Assembly (NCBI GenBank): GCA_964394505.1
Contig: CAYMXR010000001.1
Coordinates: 9,878 to 73,877, forward strand
Length of the DNA: 64,000 nt
Reading direction: 5' to 3'
Source of the DNA: an uncultured Candidatus Saccharibacteria bacterium
GTDB taxonomy: Bacteria; Patescibacteriota; Minisyncoccia; Phycocordibacterales; PALSA-1337
Position numbers and translations under genes: made by a program. The notes beneath the pieces are model-generated. The model did not search any database, had not been told where the DNA came from, and saw only the letters and a program-made list of their open reading frames with translations. Below are positions 4,953-62,356 of the stretch, piece after piece (position 1 is the stretch's first letter; every line of letters starts with the position of its first letter).

Positions 4953-6113
4953 ATGTTTGATCTAAAAGTAATTAATTCAGTAGTTCAACAATTAGAAGAA
5001 GAACGAGGTATTCCAAAAGAAAAGACACTGGAAGCCATCTCCATGGCCTTTGCTACTGCTTACAAAAAAGAATACGGCAAGAAAGGCCAGATTATTCGCG
5101 CTTCATTTGACCAAAACTCTGGTGCTGTTGAATTTTGGCAGGTAAAGATAGTAGTTGACCATGATCAAGTGATCATGGAAGGCGATGAAGATACTCAAGA
5201 AAATCTCAAAGAGACTGCCGTAGAAGACATCAAGATCCGCTTCAACCCAGAACAACACATTTTCATCGAAGATGCGCGCAAGATAAAGAGAGAAGCGATC
5301 ATCGGTGATGAATTGGTTTTTCCACTTGAGACAAAAGCTGATTTTGGTCGCATCGCCGCTCAGACAGCAAAACAAATCATCATCCAAAAGATTCGCGAGG
5401 CTGAAAAAGTCTCGGTTATGAGCGAATACGGCCAAAAAGAAGGTGAAATTGTCGCTGGAATAGTCGAAAGAGTCGAAAGGGGTGTCATATATATAGATAT
5501 GGGACGAGCGATTGGTGTTATTCCTTACGAAGAACAGATCCCTAGCGAACATTGGAAAACTGGTGACCGTATTCGCGCCTATCTCTTTGCCGTTGAAGAG
5601 ACACCAAAAGGCATTGTCCTCAAGCTTTCTCGCGCTCATCCAAAATTCCTCGCAAAACTATTTGAAACAGAGACCCCAGAGATTGCCTCCGGTGTTGTTG
5701 AGATCAAAAATGTTGCCCGAGAAGCAGGATCGAGATCGAAGATTGCAGTTATTTCTCATGATTCACATATCGATCCGATCGGATCCATGGTTGGTCAAAG
5801 AGGTGTACGCGTAACAACAGTTACCAGCGAGCTTTCTGGTGAAAAGATAGATATTGTCGAATGGAATGAGGATCCTGCTCTATTTATTGAGGAAGCCCTC
5901 TCTCCTGCCGAAGTTGTTTCTCTAGAATTAGATGAAAAAGAACATCGAGCTATAGTTACCGTCACCGAAGATGAGCAATCATTAGCAATCGGTAAGGGTG
6001 GCCAAAATGTCCGCCTTGCCGCCAAACTCACCGGCTGGAAGATTGATATCAAGTCAATTGGAGGAATAGAAGAGTTGGATTTACCTGAGAATGCTGAAGG
6101 TGTAGAGAAATAG
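4953..6113 (+). CDS. nusA: Transcription termination/antitermination factor NusA
   Basis: MFDLKVINSVVQQLEEERGIPKE N-terminus, S1 and KH regions; the track start at 4890 is extended and the ATG at 4953 is used. Confidence 0.9.
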   Translation: MFDLKVINSVVQQLEEERGIPKEKTLEAISMAFATAYKKEYGKKGQIIRASFDQNSGAVEFWQVKIVVDHDQVIMEGDEDTQENLKETAVEDIKIRFNPEQHIFIEDARKIKREAIIGDELVFPLETKADFGRIAAQTAKQIIIQKIREAEKVSVMSEYGQKEGEIVAGIVERVERGVIYIDMGRAIGVIPYEEQIPSEHWKTGDRIRAYLFAVEETPKGIVLKLSRAHPKFLAKLFETETPEIASGVVEIKNVAREAGSRSKIAVISHDSHIDPIGSMVGQRGVRVTTVTSELSGEKIDIVEWNEDPALFIEEALSPAEVVSLELDEKEHRAIVTVTEDEQSLAIGKGGQNVRLAAKLTGWKIDIKSIGGIEELDLPENAEGVEK

Positions 6114-19451: not shown

Positions 19452-19525
19452 TGGTGCGGGATGGGAGAATCGGACTCCCGACCACAGTTTGGAAAACTGT
19501 TATTATACCATTTAACTAATCCCGC
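19452..19525 (-). tRNA. tRNA-Gly (anticodon UCC); CCA is encoded
   Basis: Hand-folded cloverleaf: GCGGGAT acceptor stem, anticodon loop TTTCCAA. The T-loop reads TCCGATT (C at position 55), which is atypical. Confidence 0.6.
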
Positions 19526-19559
19526 TATTTCTAGTTAACAGCAAAATCAATACTAGCAA

Positions 19560-19994
19560 TTATTTGTTATTTTCGCCAGAATTATCGACAACTGCTTCTT
19601 TTATCTCCACGATATTCTTTTCTATCTCTTTTATTGTATTTTGAATTTCTTTAAGCTCAATTCCCTCTTCTTTGATCTCCTTTTCAGTCTTTTCTGCCAA
19701 TTTCTTTTCGCCACTCATACCACTGATGAGCACCGTATCGCCAATGAAATAAGAGACAAAGAGTCCTGAAGCTAGAAGTATCACGGTCACAATAACCAAG
19801 TTGTTTGGCTCATAAAATAACCAGCCCAACCAACCTCCTTGAGCTTGAAGCATGTCTGCTGTATGCCAGATCCCTCTCCAAAAAAGCACAATCGCTATGC
19901 CGCCAATAAATGTATACAAAATAGGGTGATGACTAAGACGCCCCCTCACTTTATCTTCAAATTTATCAAAATAATTAATTATTTTCTTAAACAT
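19560..19994 (-). CDS. Hypothetical membrane protein with a coiled-coil C-terminus
   Basis: Two TM helices. Confidence 0.45.
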   Translation of the reverse strand: MFKKIINYFDKFEDKVRGRLSHHPILYTFIGGIAIVLFWRGIWHTADMLQAQGGWLGWLFYEPNNLVIVTVILLASGLFVSYFIGDTVLISGMSGEKKLAEKTEKEIKEEGIELKEIQNTIKEIEKNIVEIKEAVVDNSGENNK

Positions 19995-20087
19995 AATTCA
20001 AATTGTAACATACTCATGCGTAAATTTCCCAAAGAAAAAGAGGTGCCTTATTTTTAAGATTTAAGATTTGAGATTTTATATTTAATG

Positions 20088-20160
20088 TCGGAGCGCCGGG
20101 ATTCGAACCCGGAGTCGCCTCTTCCCAAAAGAGGAATGTTAGCCGTTACACCACGCTCCG
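20088..20160 (-). tRNA. tRNA-Pro (anticodon UGG); CCA not encoded
   Basis: Cloverleaf folded by hand: anticodon loop TTTGGGA with G37, T-loop TTCGAAT, perfect D-stem. Confidence 0.8.
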
Positions 20161-20182
20161 ATAACAGAACTATCCTAGCACA

Positions 20183-20563
20183 TTACAAAATAATATTCTC
20201 TATCATCCTCACTTTTGCTTTTTTTGTCTCAAAATTGAGGTACACGCATATTACATGAAAAGCGAACTCAATTTCAAGTCCTTTATCATTTTCATCAAAA
20301 TAAGTTTGAACCATCTTGCGTATTTGCCTGATTTTCCAATTATCCACATTCTCTTCTGGTTTATGTCCATTGATAACAGTCGGACAATTGGAGACACTTT
20401 TGACTTCAATAAAGTGAATGAGACTGTCTTTGTTGGCGATAATGTCTATTTCACCCCATCTTTTCCTATAGTTTCTAGTTTCAATACAAAAACCATTTTT
20501 AACTAGATATTCACAGGCTATTCTTTCTCCAATTTCCCCTATTTTGCGTGTATTTTTGGTCAT
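20183..20563 (-). CDS. yraN: YraN-family (UPF0102) endonuclease
   Basis: GEIGERIACEYLVKNGFCIETRNYR...GEIDIIA...IHFIEVK motif pattern. Confidence 0.75.
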   Translation of the reverse strand: MTKNTRKIGEIGERIACEYLVKNGFCIETRNYRKRWGEIDIIANKDSLIHFIEVKSVSNCPTVINGHKPEENVDNWKIRQIRKMVQTYFDENDKGLEIEFAFHVICVYLNFETKKAKVRMIENIIL

Positions 20564-20596
20564 TTTTAACGCATTTAAGCCATTAAAGTCGTCTTT

Positions 20597-20626
20597 TATT
20601 CACATAATCCCCAAGCTTATCCACAG
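20597..20626. promoter_or_regulatory. Two DnaA-box 9-mers (TTATTCACA at 8/9, TTATCCACA at 9/9), 12 bp apart, 34-63 bp upstream of yraN
   Basis: Direct match to the TTATCCACA consensus. Confidence 0.35.
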
Positions 20627-20746
20627 TTGTCCATTACGAAATACTATTTTGAGCCATATATTACAGACAACAACTTTTCTTGTAGATAATAGAAAAATTC
20701 AAAATTGCAGAGCCACAATAGGCTTTCTTTGAGACTAACTTCCCTG

Positions 20747-20817
20747 TGCGGGTAGGGAGAATCGAACTCCCACCTCGTCCTTGGCAAGGACGCGTCCTAC
20801 CACTAAACGATACCCGC
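20747..20817 (-). tRNA. tRNA-Gly (anticodon GCC); CCA not encoded
   Basis: Anticodon loop TTGCCAA, T-loop TTCGATT, 7-bp acceptor stem GCGGGTA/TACCCGC. Confidence 0.8.
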
Positions 20818-21063
20818 CTACGCAAATTTAGACCTCCGGTCTAAATTCGCTACGGCGGGCAAGCCCGCTTTGTCCGTAGTAATCTAGAACGAATTAATTG
20901 CCTAAATAAGCAACAAAAGAAGTATACCGTAATAATATTTTTTTACAAATCTAAATGTGCTGGCACTACTACACTCCTCGCAAGCTCAGCGCTACGAAGT
21001 GCTGGCACTACGAAGCCCTACATCGCGCACCAGCACACTGGTGCGCGATTGCGGGCGAAGTAG

Positions 21064-21135
21064 TGCCCTCGGAGGGACTCGAACCCCCAACAGCGGTTCC
21101 GAAGACCGATGTGATATCCATTTCACCACGAGGGC
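21064..21135 (-). tRNA. tRNA-Arg (anticodon UCG); CCA not encoded
   Basis: Acceptor GCCCTCG/CGAGGGC, perfect D-stem, anticodon loop CTTCGGA, T-loop TTCGAGT; one mismatch at the base of the anticodon stem. Confidence 0.6.
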
Positions 21136-51535: not shown

Positions 51536-51865
51536 TTACTTTATAAGCCCGGCTTTTACAAAGATTTCTTTTACCTCTTCTAATAATGAATCTTTTTCTG
51601 TTTTTGTTTTCAAACACAAGACCATTTGATAACCAGAGAGGGGGAGGCTTCCACAAATCAAAGCAATTGCATTGTACATCTTTCTTCTATAACCGACTCT
51701 CTGCGAAGCCTTGCTTGCAATTTTTTGTGGAACTATGGCCGAAAACCTAGTCTGGCCTTCGTTTTTTATAATTCTCAACCAAAAAGACGGTGTATGAACA
51801 ACTTTGCCAGTTTTCATAACCAAATCTAACTGTTCACTAGAGAGTCTTTTTGAACGGGGGAGCAT
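51536..51865 (-). CDS. rnpA: Ribonuclease P protein component
   Basis: MLPRSKRLSS...; RNR-motif-like basic region; the track ORF from 51931 is extended. Confidence 0.8.
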   Translation of the reverse strand: MLPRSKRLSSEQLDLVMKTGKVVHTPSFWLRIIKNEGQTRFSAIVPQKIASKASQRVGYRRKMYNAIALICGSLPLSGYQMVLCLKTKTEKDSLLEEVKEIFVKAGLIK

Positions 51866-51872
51866 GCTTCCA

Positions 51873-52007
51873 TTATACAGCCACGCGCTTCCTGCCGATA
51901 CTGCGTCTTCGGGCCAAAACCTTGCGACCACCAGGACTTTTCATTCGAACACGAAAACCGTGTGACTTTGCTCTTTTTCTTTTGTTTGGATTGTATGTAA
52001 ATGACAT
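51873..52007 (-). CDS. rpmH: 50S ribosomal protein L34
   Basis: Hand-translated: [44 protein letters not shown]; below the ORF-track size cutoff. Confidence 0.85.
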
Positions 52008-52088
52008 GATTTGGCTACTATACATTATCTTTTACCAAGGCGCAACTTTTTTGCTGTGTTTTTTGCTTTATAAAAAGTTATGAACAAC

Positions 52089-52116
52089 TTATCAACATAT
52101 TTTAAAGCTCTCCACA
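52089..52116. promoter_or_regulatory. DnaA-box-like 9-mers (TTATCAACA at 8/9; CTCTCCACA at 7/9) in the rpmH-dnaA spacer
   Basis: Matches to TTATCCACA. Confidence 0.35.
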
Positions 52117-52152
52117 AGTTTGCAGATTTATAAACAGGTATATACTAGTGTC

Positions 52153-53493
52153 ATGAACGATCACGCAAAAATGTGGCAAACTGCTTTAATCGAAATTCAA
52201 ACCGATGTTTCGCAAGCAAACTTTTCTACATGGTTCAAAGAAACCAATATCGTCAAAGAAGAAGAGGGGGTTGTTTATCTCGGCGTGCCAAACTCTTTTA
52301 CGCAAGAGTGGCTGTACAAAAAATTTCATAATTCAATACTAAGAATTTTGCGCCAACTAAACGAACGAGTCCGCGCCCTTGAATATGTAATAATAAAAGA
52401 AGACAAAAAGGGCGAACATTCCAAAAAAAGCCCCCTCGCTCCAACTTTATCCATACCACTTCAAGATTTTTATATCAACAAAGAAGATAATCTGAACCCA
52501 AGATACACTTTTGATAATTTCGTTGTTGGCCCATACAACGAGCTGGCTCACGCCGCCTCACATACTGTGATCAAAAGCCCAGGCAGGGTATACAACCCAC
52601 TGTTTGTTTATGGCTCGACAGGTAGAGGCAAAACTCACCTCATACAGGCGATAGGAAATGAGATCAAAAAAACCCACCCTGACAAAAAAGTCTTTTACCT
52701 AACCTCCGAGCGTTTCGGTTCAGAGTTCTTTGTCGCCATCCAAGAAGGAAAGGTGCAATCATTCAAAGACCGTTACAGAAAATATGATGTGATGATCATG
52801 GATGATGTACAGTTTTTCTCCAACAAAGATAAGTTTCAAGAGGAATTATTCCATTTTTTTAACACTTTCCATGACACAGGTAGGCAGCTCATATTTTCTT
52901 CAGATCGCCATCCAAACATCATTCCTGGACTTGAAGACCGTTTGCGTGGTCGCTTTAGTGTCGGAATGATCGTCGACATTCCGGAACCAGACAACGAATC
53001 CAGGGCCGCTATCGTCAAAACCAAGTGCGCTCTACATTCTATAACCCTTTCCGACGAATCTATTGGTCTCATAACCGCAGCAATAGAGGACAATATCAGG
53101 GAAATAGAGGGTATCATCAATGTTATTGCTTGCCAAACCCAACTCCGTAACCGCGAACTAACGATCAATGAGATAAAAAACATCCTAAAAAACAGCAGTA
53201 AACCAAAAAAGAATGTTTTGGTTAAAGATATAATAAAAACCATAGCAGAGTTCTACAATACCGACGAAGAAAGTATCCTCAACAAAACTAGACGCAAGGA
53301 GGTGGTAAGACCAAGACAGGTGATCATGTACATACTTAGAGAGGATTTTGGAGTATCTTTTCCTTCTATAGGAGAAAAGCTTGGGGGAAGAGATCATACA
53401 ACCGTTATTCACTCTTATGAAAAAATAAAGGGTGAAGTAAAAAATGACACGGTCTTATCGCAAGAGATAGCACAAATTCGATCCATGCTATAA
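52153..53493 (+). CDS. dnaA: Chromosomal replication initiator DnaA
   Basis: Walker A GSTGRGKTHL and a C-terminal DNA-binding domain. The ATG at 52153 lies 6 nt after TATACT (leaderless); the track start at 52120 is a TTG. Confidence 0.9.
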   Translation: MNDHAKMWQTALIEIQTDVSQANFSTWFKETNIVKEEEGVVYLGVPNSFTQEWLYKKFHNSILRILRQLNERVRALEYVIIKEDKKGEHSKKSPLAPTLSIPLQDFYINKEDNLNPRYTFDNFVVGPYNELAHAASHTVIKSPGRVYNPLFVYGSTGRGKTHLIQAIGNEIKKTHPDKKVFYLTSERFGSEFFVAIQEGKVQSFKDRYRKYDVMIMDDVQFFSNKDKFQEELFHFFNTFHDTGRQLIFSSDRHPNIIPGLEDRLRGRFSVGMIVDIPEPDNESRAAIVKTKCALHSITLSDESIGLITAAIEDNIREIEGIINVIACQTQLRNRELTINEIKNILKNSSKPKKNVLVKDIIKTIAEFYNTDEESILNKTRRKEVVRPRQVIMYILREDFGVSFPSIGEKLGGRDHTTVIHSYEKIKGEVKNDTVLSQEIAQIRSML

Positions 53494-53516
53494 CCTTGAT
53501 AAGTTGTTATTAAGAC

Positions 53517-53662
53517 GGGGGATAATTTGGGGATTAGTGGTTAACAATTCGGACGGTGGTGGTTTGTTAAATTTTCAAAAACAATTTATTAACATAGTAA
53601 TAAACTAAGGAGAAAAAAATATGGCTAGCAATAAGGATAAATAAGCTATCAACATATCCACT
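53517..53662. promoter_or_regulatory. Candidate oriC: AT-rich dnaA-dnaN spacer with four 7/9 DnaA-box matches (GGGGGATAA 53517-53525, TAAGGATAA 53632-53640, CTATCAACA 53646-53654, TATCCACT 53655-53662)
   Basis: Box matches plus the conserved rpmH-rnpA-yidC/dnaA-dnaN gene order. Confidence 0.45.
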
Positions 53663-53679
53663 CTCCTAATAGTAATAAA

Positions 53680-54786
53680 ATGAAAATTGAATTAAATATA
53701 CAGAAACTTAAAAACGCGGTGACTGCTGTGGAAAAGATTGCAGGAAAACACATAACCCTTCCTGTGTTATCGTGTATTTTAATAGAAGTAAAAAACAATA
53801 TAGCTGTTTTTAAATCAACAAACCTTGATGTTGGTATAGAAGTATCTGTTCCTGTAAAATCAAGCGAAGATGGAATAATTGCCGCTCCTGCCCACACCCT
53901 TTCCGCTTTCGTCTCTCAAATAGTTGAAAACGATCAAATAGTGAAACTTGACGACTCTTCAGGAAATCTAAAAATTACAACAACAAAAACAACAGGGACG
54001 ATAAAAATTCAAGCATTTGATGATTTTCCTTCAATACCAAGGGTCACTGATGGTAAAAAAATTGTATTGTCTTCAGAAATCTTTCTTAAGGGTTTGAAGT
54101 CGGTTTGGTACAGTTCTTCTGTTTCGAGTGTTAAACCGGAGCTTTCTAGTGTTTTTATATACAAAGATGAAGGAAATTTGGTCTTTGTTGCTACCGACTC
54201 TTTTCGTTTGGCGGAAAGAAAAGTAAAACTACCAAATACAGCCGACATTAGTGATATTTTGATTCCATTCAAAAACATTCCAGACCTAAGTCGGGTTTTG
54301 GAGAACATGAACGAAGATATTGAGGTTACTATAAACAAAAACCTAATCTCCTTTGAAGGAAAGGGAATATATGCCGTTTCCAGGCTTATCGATGGTATTT
54401 TCCCAGATTACAGACAGATCATTCCAAAAAATTACAGCACGGAGGTTATTCTACTAAAACAGGATCTAACCAACGCTTTAAAAGTCTCAAACATTTTTTC
54501 AGATAAATTTAACCAAGTTCGTTTTGTAATAGACCCCAAAGCCAAAATATTCAACATACAGACAAAAAATAGCGACATAGGGGAGAATGTTACTTCCTTG
54601 GACGCTTCATTGACTGGAGAGGTTTTGGAGATTAATTTCAATTACAAATACATTGTAGATTGTTTCCAATCAATAGACGCGGACAGTGTTTCCTTATCTT
54701 TGGGTGGTATAAGTAAACCGATGGTGATAAGGCCAATATCCGGAGACCAATCGTTTATGTATCTAGTTATGCCAATGAATCGATAA
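53680..54786 (+). CDS. dnaN: DNA polymerase III beta sliding clamp
   Basis: 368 aa with a three-domain clamp-like profile, directly after dnaA. Confidence 0.9.
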   Translation: MKIELNIQKLKNAVTAVEKIAGKHITLPVLSCILIEVKNNIAVFKSTNLDVGIEVSVPVKSSEDGIIAAPAHTLSAFVSQIVENDQIVKLDDSSGNLKITTTKTTGTIKIQAFDDFPSIPRVTDGKKIVLSSEIFLKGLKSVWYSSSVSSVKPELSSVFIYKDEGNLVFVATDSFRLAERKVKLPNTADISDILIPFKNIPDLSRVLENMNEDIEVTINKNLISFEGKGIYAVSRLIDGIFPDYRQIIPKNYSTEVILLKQDLTNALKVSNIFSDKFNQVRFVIDPKAKIFNIQTKNSDIGENVTSLDASLTGEVLEINFNYKYIVDCFQSIDADSVSLSLGGISKPMVIRPISGDQSFMYLVMPMNR

Positions 54787-59043: not shown

Positions 59044-60054
59044 TTATAATAATTTACCACTATCTTTTATCCCAACATGTTTGTATGCCTTATCTGTCGC
59101 AATTCTACCCCTAGGCGTCCTCTCTAGTAATCCCAACTGAATCAGATACGGCTCATAGACCTCTTCTATGGTTGCTTGCTCTTCAGACAGCGCAGCTGCG
59201 ATTGTATTTAACCCCACAGGTCCGCCGCCGAATTTATTTATAATAACTTTCAAAATATCTCGATCTGCTCCAGTAAGTCCGATATTGTCTACACCAAGCA
59301 TGACCAAAGCTTTCTCAACGATCTCTTTTGATAGGGAAGTCTTATTAATTTGGGCGAAGTCACGACATCTTTTTAGGTGATAGTTGGCTGTTCTTGGGGT
59401 GAAGCGTGAACGGACAGCTATTTCTGTAACCGCTTCTGGATGGATTTCTATATCGAGGATCTTGGCCGAGCGGTTTATTATCTTACTTATTTCGTCATTT
59501 GAATAAAATTCGAGTTTGAAAACTCCACCAGAAAAACGAGATCGGAGTGGCGCCGAGATCATAGCAATTCTGGTAGTCGCAGCAATAAGAGTAAACGGTG
59601 GAAGATCGAGTTGAATAGTTCTCGCAGACGGACCTTTGCCGATGATGATATCGAGCTTTCCTGTTTCCATGGCAGGGTAGAGGACTTCTTCAATGGCTTT
59701 GTTCAATCTGTGAATTTCGTCTATAAAAAGAATATCACCAGCAGAAAGATTTGTAAGTACCGATGCCAAGTCTCCAACTTTAAGAATTGCTGGCCCGGAA
59801 GTCACTTTCATTTGTGCCTCGGTCTCTTTTGCGATGAGGTGAGCAAGGGTGGTCTTGCCGAGCCCCGGTGGACCATAAAAAAGTATGTGTTCAGGTGGGT
59901 GTTTGCGCTCTTTTGCGGCAGTAAGGAGGATGTGCAGGTTATCTTTTATGTTTTTTTGACCAATGTATTCGTCCCAACGAGATGGTCGCAGGGTCTGGTC
60001 CAAAAACCCTGGGTCTTTTTCGGTGGTCGATGAATTGTTTGAAGTCCTTGACAT
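59044..60054 (-). CDS. ruvB: Holliday junction branch-migration helicase RuvB
   Basis: Walker A GPPGLGKTTLA, the sensor motifs, and a winged-helix C-terminus. Confidence 0.95.
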   Translation of the reverse strand: MSRTSNNSSTTEKDPGFLDQTLRPSRWDEYIGQKNIKDNLHILLTAAKERKHPPEHILFYGPPGLGKTTLAHLIAKETEAQMKVTSGPAILKVGDLASVLTNLSAGDILFIDEIHRLNKAIEEVLYPAMETGKLDIIIGKGPSARTIQLDLPPFTLIAATTRIAMISAPLRSRFSGGVFKLEFYSNDEISKIINRSAKILDIEIHPEAVTEIAVRSRFTPRTANYHLKRCRDFAQINKTSLSKEIVEKALVMLGVDNIGLTGADRDILKVIINKFGGGPVGLNTIAAALSEEQATIEEVYEPYLIQLGLLERTPRGRIATDKAYKHVGIKDSGKLL

Positions 60055-60330
60055 TTTTATTGCTCTATGCTAGTATTCTGTCGTAGTAGATTTGTAGTCT
60101 TTAAATACTGTATTTGTCTAAATATTTCGTTTATTTTTTCTTCTACTCTTTCGAGCCCGTAAACCTCTAAGCAATGGCCTTCCGAGGTTTGGGCATAGTG
60201 CTAAGGACATCTTGGTTGTAACGCTTCGGCGTTGCGTACTGGTATTATCCTCGGGACTCTGCCTCGCATAACGCATCACGCGATATGATATTGCTTAGAG
60301 ATTTATGTTCTTGAAGAGAACTTCCAAATT

Positions 60331-60438
60331 TGACGCATTTTTTCGTCATTTCGCTCATGTGCCCCTGCAATGTATAGGCAATACATTTTAGTCGCGCATT
60401 TCGCTCATTCCTCAAACTGCATTCAAATTTGGAAGTTC
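60331..60438. repeat. Element bounded by a perfect 18-bp inverted repeat (GAGAACTTCCAAATTTGA / TCAAATTTGGAAGTTCTC); the interior carries a GCATTTCGCTCAT direct repeat
   Basis: Seen directly in the sequence. Confidence 0.6.
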
Positions 60439-60525
60439 TCACAGCACTCCTTCTTTCTGCATCCTACCCCTGTCCACAGGAAAAAAGCAATTGACAGTGG
60501 GGATAATTTTGAGTTTGAGTGAATT

Positions 60526-60650
60526 GGACGTACACACTCGGCGCATTTCTTCGTTGCTTCGTTCGTTTGAAATCAAGCAGTATTACTATACAGCTTGATT
60601 TCAAGCCTCACTTGCGCCTCGAACTGCATCCAAGTGTGTACGTCCTAATT
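60526..60650. repeat. Second, related element bounded by a 15-bp IR (GGACGTACACACTCG / CAAGTGTGTACGTCC), with an inner GAAATCAAGC/GCTTGATTTC hairpin. Shares the CGCATTTYTTCGT and CCTCRAACTGCAT motifs with the first element.
   Basis: Seen directly in the sequence. Confidence 0.6.
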
Positions 60651-60664
60651 ATTAAAATCAAAAA

Positions 60665-62356
60665 CTAATCTTGTAAAGCGATAACCCTCTCAAGTTCTTC
60701 CAAAGAAGTAATACCTTGAAGAGCTTTTAATACTCCATCTTGACGCATGTTCAAAATACCTTGACCCTTGGCGGCGGCCCAGATCTCGCGGTCGTTCGGA
60801 TTCATCTCTACCGCATCTTCGATTTTTTTATCAGTTAATATTGCCTCGTATACTCCAATTCTACCTTTGTAGCCGGTGTTGTTACATTTGTCGCAACCTA
60901 CAGGTATCCAAATTTTTGACCTTTCGCTAGGTACTAAACTTTTATCTTCTATTTCATTTATTATAATTTCTACCTCTTTTTGCATCTCTCCTTCGAGTGG
61001 AATTTCCTTTCTACAATACAGACAAAGTTTACGTGCCAATCTTTGGGCCATCGCCACGCGGATAGCCGAGGTTATGACTTTTGAATTGACTCCAAGGTCT
61101 ATAAGACGGGGAAATGTACCAGCAGCGTTATTTGTGTGCAATGTCGAGAAGACCATGTGACCCGTGAGAGCAGAATTTACGGCAATACTTGCGGTTTCAT
61201 TGTCGCGGATTTCGCCGATCATTATTACATCCGGATCTTGGCGGACCGTAGCTCGCAAACCTTCGGCAAAGTTGTAACCTTTTTCATTGACTTGAGTCTG
61301 TACTATCCCTTCTAGGTGGTATTCGATAGGGTCTTCAAGGGTGATAATTTTTAGATCAGGTGAATGAATCTTTTTTAGGAACGAATAGAGCGTTGTTGTT
61401 TTTCCAGAACCTGTAGGTCCAGTGGTTAGGATCATGCCATCTGGGCGAGTCATTTCTTTGAGTAAAATGTTGAGCAGTTTTGGATGTATACCTAAACTTT
61501 CTAGTGGAACATCTATCGATTTTGGATTGAGAAGACGCATCACAACAGATTCATTGTAAGCTCCGGGGAGGATCGATACGCGCACTTCGATATCTCCAAT
61601 TGCGAGTTTTATACTAAACCTTCCATCTTGGTTGTCTTTTTTGATATTCAATTTCATTCCCGAGATGAGTTTGATACGCGAAAGGAGTAGGGCATATGTG
61701 TCATTGTCAAAGCGGATAATGTCATGAAGAACACCGTCTAGGCGATAGCGAAGCAAGGCATAACCCTGCTCTGGTTCGAAATGAATGTCGGAGGCATCTA
61801 ATGCAAGAGCTCCAGCCACGGATGTTTCCAAAATTCTAGAAACCCTGTAACTCATTCGGGTCGCAAGTAATGTTTGGAGAATCTTAACCACATCAGGCAA
61901 GGTCTTGGTTTGGTTTATTATCTTAGTGATTTCTTCATTAGAAATTTCTAGTGAACCAGCTTTGCTTTCGTAAGCAAAAGAGAGGTCTTTGTAACCAAGC
62001 CAAGCTTTCTCTAGGCTTTGAGTGGAAGCTATGTTTAATTCTGGGGTATAACCTTTGGCTCTAAGTCCTTCTAGAACGGCGACAACTTTTTCGTCTTCTG
62101 GGTTTCTAGATGCAACTTTGATTTTTTTATCAACAATGGCGTACCCGGCCACTTGGGCATTTCTAGCGGTTGTTTCGTCTATCAATCGCAGAGCGTCGGT
62201 GTTTATGTTTATCGAGATAAGATTGACATAATCGAGGCCGTATTTACCGGAAAGAACCTGAACGAGATCCTCCTCTTCTTTGTGTAAAAGATCATTCAGT
62301 TTTCTCTTTTGTTTGTCTTCGTCGAATGTGATGGTCATGTAAACATTATAGCGCAT
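60665..62356 (-). CDS. Second GspE/PilB-family secretion ATPase (retains the C-terminal tetracysteine motif)
   Basis: Walker A GPTGSGKTTTLY; CLYCRKE...CDKCNNTGYKGR. Confidence 0.85.
   Translation of the reverse strand: MRYNVYMTITFDEDKQKRKLNDLLHKEEEDLVQVLSGKYGLDYVNLISININTDALRLIDETTARNAQVAGYAIVDKKIKVASRNPEDEKVVAVLEGLRAKGYTPELNIASTQSLEKAWLGYKDLSFAYESKAGSLEISNEEITKIINQTKTLPDVVKILQTLLATRMSYRVSRILETSVAGALALDASDIHFEPEQGYALLRYRLDGVLHDIIRFDNDTYALLLSRIKLISGMKLNIKKDNQDGRFSIKLAIGDIEVRVSILPGAYNESVVMRLLNPKSIDVPLESLGIHPKLLNILLKEMTRPDGMILTTGPTGSGKTTTLYSFLKKIHSPDLKIITLEDPIEYHLEGIVQTQVNEKGYNFAEGLRATVRQDPDVIMIGEIRDNETASIAVNSALTGHMVFSTLHTNNAAGTFPRLIDLGVNSKVITSAIRVAMAQRLARKLCLYCRKEIPLEGEMQKEVEIIINEIEDKSLVPSERSKIWIPVGCDKCNNTGYKGRIGVYEAILTDKKIEDAVEMNPNDREIWAAAKGQGILNMRQDGVLKALQGITSLEELERVIALQD

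Follow-up and report, generated by a model that had tools for sequence, protein, structure and literature searches.

The spacer between ruvB and a pilB-like gene carries two copies of a palindromic repeat of about 125 bp that is widespread in CPR/Patescibacteria. The repeat is probably a non-autonomous mobile element, of which the two copies are separate insertions. Beside them lies a conserved structured domain of 142 nt, unrelated to the repeat family, that is a candidate small RNA. No further copy of the family was found by BLAST or by the covariance model in the window, i.e. in the whole stretch of 64 kb that was analysed.

The spacer covers positions 60055-60664 (610 bp). It is bounded on one side by ruvB (59044-60054, minus strand, with yebC and ruvC downstream) and on the other by the gene of a PilB-like T2SSE ATPase (60665-62356, minus strand, TAG stop codon at 60665-60667). 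A non-coding spacer of 560 bp at 60100-60660 was described in the original prediction; the spacer is real, but it is longer than was thought. The RuvB homologues bear the names Candidatus Paceibacterota, Pacebacteria and Taylorbacteria. An open reading frame at 60245-60442 (65 aa, GTG start) runs across the border between the first element and the conserved domain. It had rightly been considered implausible, as relatives without this element cannot have the frame.

Some other features of the region are worth recording. In relatives, a variable insertion is found between ruvB and yebC, consisting of a Bro-N domain gene that is sometimes accompanied by a TrmB-like gene (L004:8638-9726, L005:3421-4311, L006:3354-4745, L008:11560-12432). 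It is absent in the window and marks a second hypervariable spot of the operon. A cluster of rnpA, dnaA and dnaN with yidC is located at 51536-54786, so the chromosomal origin region is probably inside the window; at the 64-kb scale the GC skew was uninformative about a replication-strand bias of the elements. Four tRNA genes (Gly-TCC, Pro-TGG, Gly-GCC, Arg-TCG) are interleaved with small ORFs at 19452-21135 on the minus strand, and four tRNAs are all that Rfam reports at gathering score in the whole window.

Both elements are 125-nt copies of the same hairpin repeat family, read on the minus strand. Element 1 is located at 60316-60440 and obtains 117.5 bits with the covariance model R1. Its arms are perfectly complementary over 18 bp (60316-60333, the 3' arm in the minus-strand sense, and 60423-60440, the 5' arm), and they enclose the core motifs ATGCAGTTTGAGG (60410-60422) and GACGAAAAAATGCG (60334-60347) and an apical hairpin at about 60357-60399. 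Element 2 is located at 60524-60648, 16 nt from the pilB stop codon, and obtains 126.1 bits but belongs to a different subfamily. Here the arms (60524-60541 and 60630-60648) are 18 and 19 nt long with one wobble or mismatch and one bulge, the core motifs are ATGCAGTTCGAGG (60617-60629) and AACGAAGAAATGCG (60542-60555), and the inner hairpin at 60567-60604 has arms of 17 nt with 94% complementarity.

The two elements can be aligned from end to end. Their terminal stems differ at nine positions, and six of these are compensated on both sides. Two interior motifs, GCGCATTTYTTCGT and CCTCRAACTGCAT on the plus strand, are common to both elements and touch the arms, in agreement with the earlier statement that the elements share two short interior motifs while their termini differ. 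The fold z-scores are between -5.7 and -9.0 compared with shuffled sequence, and the fold is more stable on the minus than on the plus strand. It is therefore confirmed that two related elements bounded by inverted repeats are present, as was originally noticed: the arms, the fold, the compensated changes and at least 100 homologous copies elsewhere all agree, although the coordinates were off by 3-15 nt. For element 1 (given as 60331-60438) the perfect 18-bp repeats were correct while the start was placed about 15 nt too far in, and for element 2 (given as 60526-60650) the 15-bp repeats and the inner 10-bp hairpin that were described are both longer.

The description of the elements as a tandem pair does not hold. 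They are only 62% identical to each other, while element 1 is 79% and element 2 83% identical to copies in other genomes. Each element is thus closer to copies in foreign genomes than to its neighbour, which argues for two independent insertions and against a local tandem duplication.

To collect the family, the pattern ATGCAGTTYGAG-N50-80-GAARAAATGC was built from the two window copies in the minus-strand sense and was searched in a collection of species-representative genomes. Among the 126 matches listed, 100 are flanked by complementary arms of 17-19 bp, giving at least 100 verified copies. The other 26 have no arms, and they come mostly from unrelated taxa and have atypical spacing. Nearly all the true copies are found in MAGs labelled Paceibacterota (Taylor-, Kaiser-, Nomura-, Lloyd-, Yonath-, Azam- and Zambryskibacteria), Moraniibacteriota or Saccharibacteria, and a few in bins labelled Bdellovibrionales, Micavibrio and similar; the taxa are the MAG labels, and both this host range and the apparent conservation of the core are biased because the pattern was derived from the two copies of the window. 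In the IMG/VR phage collection, a single atypical match was found. Seven genomes were tallied and each contains at least 3-11 copies among the matches listed, with at least 10-11 in the Taylorbacteria genome MHSK01. Within a genome, the identity between copies at separate loci reaches 99.2%, and the medians for two genomes are 92-94%. A full-text literature search on repeats and structured RNAs of CPR/Patescibacteria found no description of the family.

A variant form was also observed. Here two core units follow each other head-to-tail, with a short spacer common to both and without full complementary arms for each (L103:3169-3434; L066:3528-3669 and 5172-5313, in a MAG labelled Porphyromonas). 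The family may thus also occur as tandem arrays. Several copies in other genomes (L010, L026 and others) adjoin pilB/pilC-like, ruvB, ssb or translational-GTPase (GTP_EFTU domain) genes, and these recurring neighbours may represent old orthologous insertions or a preference for certain spacers.

Each copy forms a complete hairpin over its full length. In the minus-strand sense of the window the consensus is (A/T)TAGGACTTACGCAGTTGG-A-TGCA-G-TTC-GAGG ... CAAC-GAA-GAAA-TGCG-CCRACTGCGTAAGTCCTA(T/A), with a total length of about 125 nt. The terminal stem P1 consists of 17-19 bp, usually TAGGACTT...AAGTCCTA, and inside it a bulged A is followed by the short helices UGCA/UGCG and UUC/GAA. Next comes a conserved internal loop, GAGG opposite CAACGAAG, which is purine-rich and retained in diverged copies, and beyond it three more helices of variable sequence. 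All eight members tested have the same rod fold, with z-scores from -3.9 to -10 (seven of them between -7 and -10, while an array unit of L103 has -3.9).

The covariation is extensive. In the alignment of the 100 copies, 93.5% of the cells in the consensus structure are paired, compared with 75% when the partners are shuffled and about 37% when they are displaced by 1-3 columns. Changes on both sides affect 593 cells, against 147 in the shuffles. Even the helices that are fixed by the search pattern covary in diverged copies found with the covariance model R1, where UGCA/UGCG becomes UACA/UGUG and UUC/GAA becomes UCC/GGA. Two apparently orthologous copies with the same flanks were seen in two Saccharibacteria MAGs (L082:363-504 and L098:2104-2243); their terminal stems differ by compensated changes from G-C to A-U, i.e. 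the pairing was kept after insertion.

The strand that carries ATGCAG, which is the minus strand in the window, is more stable than its complement in all 100 copies, with a mean of -55.7 compared with -44.1 kcal/mol, and it contains 311 G-U pairs compared with 163 on the complement. This bias holds in either orientation relative to the neighbouring genes. Such a strand-specific fold, independent of the local gene orientation, suggests that selection acts when the element propagates, through a single-stranded DNA or RNA intermediate.

The synteny of pilB, spacer and ruvB is retained in relatives in which the elements are not. Both elements are present in relatives whose RuvB is 99% identical. 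At 97% identity, element 2 is absent and element 1 is reduced to seven nucleotides of one arm, '[T/G]AGAACT' (L130, L132). At 96%, an internal deletion has left about 55 nt of element 1 and element 2 is missing, and at 92% there is no trace of either. None of 50 further related spacers from metagenomes contains a copy of the family. A clean junction between a filled and an empty site was not obtained, as the near-empty relatives keep the seven nucleotides and the insert-free DnaG sequences are too diverged at the junction.

Two of the 100 copies, approximately, were verified as intragenic. One is located in DnaG of the Lloydbacteria genome MHLP01 (L123:6375-6501), where it is in-frame and in the sense orientation, adds 43 aa and splits the Pfam domain DNAG_N at profile position 65/66; DnaG orthologues without the insert exist. 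The other is located in a sugar-phosphate nucleotidyltransferase of the Taylorbacteria genome JACPHR01 (L114:6482-6605), also in-frame and sense, where it adds 42 aa and splits NTP_transferase at 98/99. The two inserts are 126 and 129 nt long, the size of the whole unit bounded by the inverted repeats. The family has thus multiplied within genomes, landed in AT-rich sites at gene ends and occasionally in-frame inside genes, and the inserted copies have later decayed or been deleted.

The position of the copies relative to genes is not random. An ORF of at least 80 codons reads into 67 of the 100 copies and ends within about 17 nt, and only a few run further in. The spacing to the stop codon depends on the orientation. 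At the 3' end of the ATGCAG strand, the stop codon is within -6 to +2 nt in 30 out of 42 cases, and it is often a TAG or TAA supplied by the element itself. Only 4 out of 25 ORFs come this close at the 5' end, where gaps of 8-17 nt are usual (Fisher p = 1e-5 between the ends). Copies are antisense to neighbouring genes in a ratio of 97:56 (p = 0.001). The window copies fit both spacing patterns, as element 2 is in the sense orientation beyond the pilB stop, while element 1 adjoins the end of the candidate small RNA domain in antisense. The model of a mobile repeat does not explain this non-random orientation, and strong covariation with a strand-specific fold is also what would be expected of a functional RNA.

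These are the arguments for a different explanation, namely that the elements are cis-acting RNA modules with a function for the host (3'-end stabilisers, RNase III processing sites or terminators), kept for the effect of the transcribed hairpin on its neighbours. It would fit the heavy covariation, the fold preference and the orientation-dependent spacing to stop codons, and the known MITEs Correia and ERIC modulate the fate of mRNAs (PMC10969869). However, close relatives with the same genes miss both copies, near-identical copies appear in bursts within genomes, and copies are located in-frame within DnaG and the nucleotidyltransferase. Further, the better-folding strand is antisense to the neighbours in most copies, so it would usually not be the transcribed strand, and the hairpin is not followed by a U-tract. 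We therefore consider this explanation unlikely, although less so than the other two. An intrinsic terminator in particular was rejected, since a terminator scan flagged neither element and the flank profile contains no T-run.

The ends of the copies bear on a second explanation, that they are classical MITEs of a TA-targeting DDE transposon (IS630/Tc1-mariner type), mobilised in trans and with duplication of a TA target. The elements end in (A/T)TAGGAC...GTCCTA(T/A), and TA is found at both ends in 52 of the 100 copies. Together with the inverted repeats, the small size and the AT-rich sites this would fit a TA-MITE, as would the consensus, in which one reading frame begins at an ATG immediately within the left arm, stays open up to a stop codon in the right arm and looks like a transposase gene that has collapsed. 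However, in copies with terminal dinucleotides other than TA, the two ends are inverted complements of each other 16 times and direct repeats once, so they act as the outermost base pairs of the hairpin rather than as a duplicated target. Each in-frame insert has the length of the entire unit, and if a TA duplication is assumed the genes would have been frameshifted before the insertion. Neither the terminal dinucleotides nor the in-frame inserts thus show a target-site duplication. Moreover, a double-stranded DNA mechanism would require neither the covariation of the interior helices nor the preference for one strand. An insertion sequence with matching ends was not found in about 1.07 Mb of loci examined, where pairs of termini at long range are separate elements only, and a DDE transposase was not seen near the copies. 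A TA-targeting origin is therefore improbable, somewhat more so than a cis-acting function.

Other mobilising enzymes were also searched for. Clustering of 782 neighbouring ORFs and Pfam analysis of the 150 nearest ORFs revealed no transposase, reverse transcriptase or integrase, only housekeeping genes and no enriched family, and RAYT is absent from the frequent neighbour families. ORFs for an IS200/IS605-type TnpA (Y1 HUH transposase) were noticed in two related contigs (L165:4480-4908, minus strand, and L161:3430-3894), adjoining no hairpin element; a tblastn search with an approximate IS200 TnpA query matched only these two, both without copies.

Finally, it is very improbable that the copies are an independently transcribed family of small RNA genes, i.e. 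trans-acting or protein-binding paralogues, because the strand-specific fold and the conserved internal loop of GAGG opposite CAACGAAG between covarying helices, which suggests a protein-binding site, stand against the lack of a conserved promoter or terminator at any fixed distance, the insertion of copies within ORFs, the different presence among near-identical genomes and a copy number that varies widely between genomes.

Sequence conservation reaches exactly as far as the hairpin and breaks off at its two end bases. Outside the hairpin the information content is close to zero and the flanks are merely AT-rich, with neither a promoter nor a U-tract at a fixed distance in the flank profile of the copies; the terminator scan flagged nothing at the window elements. 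With Rfam 15 at E <= 10 the elements of the spacer match only MIR1428 (23.1 bits, gathering score 79) and MIR7533 (13.7 bits, gathering score 230), which are generic long-hairpin matches to microRNA precursors below threshold, and no known RNA family explains the elements. A coding mini-gene was rejected as well: the consensus has an open frame, but the core varies between 84 and 91 nt among copies without a 3-nt periodicity, and in element 2 the frame is soon interrupted by a stop codon. A hammerhead or K-turn motif does not fit the core positions of the consensus, as judged by eye.

The 142-nt domain is located at 60162-60303, probably on the plus strand, and consists of a closing stem and three hairpins. 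It is almost invariant among relatives while its surroundings diverge. A metagenome scan found the domain in 50 more loci, and about 57 related loci are known overall. It is located 50-270 nt upstream of ruvB wherever the contig reaches ruvB, and pilB is on the other side in nearly all cases. Two of the hairpins covary strongly. One of these is the UUCG-loop hairpin AACGC-TTCG-GCGTT, which forms the tip of the central arm of the domain (60218-60235, core 60220-60233, plus strand). Among relatives its stem covaries, and the plus-strand loop is UUCG in most and UCCG, UUUG, CUUG or CUUGU in others. The hairpin had been predicted at about 60223-60236; it is real, but its core starts 3 nt further to the left and it is one arm of the domain rather than free-standing.

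Regarding the strand of the domain, the plus strand folds better in 36 of 38 distinct sequences, and its RNAalifold consensus energy is -50.6 kcal/mol, compared with -41.1 kcal/mol for the complement. The loop sequences UUCG, UCCG, UUUG and CUUG, as read on the plus strand, and the promoter described next also speak for this strand. As a single outer closing pair points to the minus strand instead, the plus strand is probable but not proven. A sigma-70-type promoter at 60048-60076 on the plus strand points to the domain. It consists of TTGACA, 17 nt and TAGTAT, with a TG at the extended -10 position, and its -35 box overlaps the ATG of ruvB (60052-60054). In 38 of 39 distinct related loci, the plus strand contains TTGACA-N17-TAnnnT with TATGM immediately upstream. 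Judged by its sequence, the domain is probably a plus-strand small RNA candidate that would be driven by this near-consensus promoter, with its 5' end predicted near 60083. It is either a candidate new small RNA or a candidate cis-antisense partner of the ruvB leader, and no Rfam family matches it at E <= 10.

Another conserved block lies between the two elements, at 60467-60519, and can be read on either strand. On the plus strand it contains a hairpin (CCCCTGTC...GACAGTGGGG) followed by a U-rich run, and on the minus strand TTGCTT-N18-TAGGAT. Either the plus-strand RNA would have its 3' end here, or the block would be a minus-strand promoter of ruvB; the terminator scan did not flag it. A regulatory region for the secretion ATPase, one of the initial proposals for the spacer, finds no support, since the conserved domain and the plus-strand promoter overlapping the ruvB start codon are the only conserved parts. 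The elements have no demonstrated role for pilB or ruvB. At this locus they look like passengers, as close relatives do without both.

The proposals of a pair of MITEs and of a structured ncRNA each captured a part of the picture. The elements do belong to one dispersed, multi-copy, non-coding family bounded by inverted repeats, but they are not classical MITEs, as no target-site duplication and, in the loci examined, no matching insertion sequence was found, and they are not a tandem pair. They have the structure of an ncRNA, with covariation and a strand-specific fold, but not its behaviour, as they have no promoter or terminator, are missing in close relatives and occur in-frame in genes. 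According to our preferred model of a mobile repeat, the strand-specific fold and the covariation would belong to the lineage of the element and not to a local host transcript, and the fold of one strand, as single-stranded DNA or RNA, is probably what the mobilising machinery recognises, as was proposed for REPINs.

A more far-reaching version of the model is possible but doubtful. Here, the family would be a structure-dependent mobile element of an uncharacterised kind, a 125-nt rod that propagates by way of single-stranded DNA or RNA, always with the same polarity, with its conserved sub-terminal internal loop read by a CPR enzyme, and that inserts without target duplication, preferentially at the 3' ends of genes and in a fixed orientation. 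The adjacent 142-nt domain would be a new class of strongly expressed small RNA of a Paceibacterota clade, tied to ruvB.

CPR genomes are among the smallest and most streamlined, and a selfish repeat that persists in many of their lineages, even in essential genes, is therefore unexpected baggage. The family provides a hairpin in hundreds of natural variants, with sharply defined ends and a strand polarity that is clear. It may help to find out if elements of this kind influence 3' ends and proteins where the genome is reduced. In practice, the repeats will create spurious ORFs, such as the one across the end of element 1, and assembly breaks in CPR MAGs, and they should be masked or annotated. 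The 142-nt domain, which element 1 adjoins on the 3' side, is a clean candidate for a new small RNA with a textbook promoter in organisms that have almost no known regulatory RNAs. It would resemble housekeeping small RNAs such as 6S RNA, as a separate RNA of about 140-180 nt that is closed by a long stem and has a sigma-70 promoter of great strength. It differs from 6S RNA in the absence of an Rfam match at the threshold given above, in its fixed locus next to ruvB and in one of its three inner arms, where hairpin c covaries strongly as a true hairpin and not as an open bubble.

The repeats belong to the known class of small palindromic non-autonomous repeats (MITE/REPIN/RPE-like), and the family is new for CPR bacteria in the literature searched. 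In integron attC sites and comparable single-strand recombination sites that fold, the structure is conserved over the sequence, the fold is strand-specific and the size range is similar, and in all this the family is alike. However, it has no R/L boxes (GTTRRRY) at its ends and no cassette arrays or integrase nearby, and its neighbours are housekeeping genes. With MITEs the family shares a small size (125 nt, i.e. below 300 bp), the non-coding nature, terminal inverted repeats of 17-19 bp, AT-rich targets and dispersed copies. Transcripts of the classical MITEs Correia/CREE, ERIC and QMITE are predicted to form very stable stem-loops (PMC10969869). The differences are that neither a target-site duplication nor a parent insertion sequence was detected for our family, that its interior covaries throughout and that one strand folds better.

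For a single-strand mechanism, REPINs are the nearest precedent. These hairpin-forming REP doublets, which RAYT transposases mobilise, show compensatory evolution of the hairpin and no target duplication, and their excision leaves about 6 bp of one end (PMC3116915). Likewise, our family is a non-autonomous hairpin of about 100 nt with two inverted halves kept by compensatory changes, without target duplication and with amplification within genomes, and the seven nucleotides of one arm of element 1 left in L130 and L132 compare with the 6 bp of the REPINs. However, it has no GTAG/CGTC REP tag and ends in TAGGAC, usually after A or T, its most conserved part is sub-terminal and not terminal, some copies are intragenic, and neither a RAYT nor a Y1 transposase was found beside any copy.

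Rickettsia palindromic elements (RPEs), whose signature the behaviour of our family recalls, are palindromic repeats of about 100-150 bp in the small genomes of host-dependent bacteria, located in intergenic regions and in-frame in housekeeping genes, where they add a peptide, and they have no known transposase (PMC10969869). Compared by features and not by sequence, our family is similar, with in-frame copies and an open frame through the element that adds 42 aa in NTP_transferase and 43 aa in DnaG and splits the Pfam domains. RPEs occur in another phylum and are often intragenic, unlike our family with its few intragenic copies. The family further differs by the fold bias towards one strand in 100 out of 100 copies and by a sub-terminal core that is conserved across several phylum-level CPR lineages. 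It may help to explain how RPE- and REPIN-like palindromic elements move, and if the structure is indeed what is read, it would be a tractable model in which to study RPE-like palindromic elements, whose mobility has long lacked an explanation.
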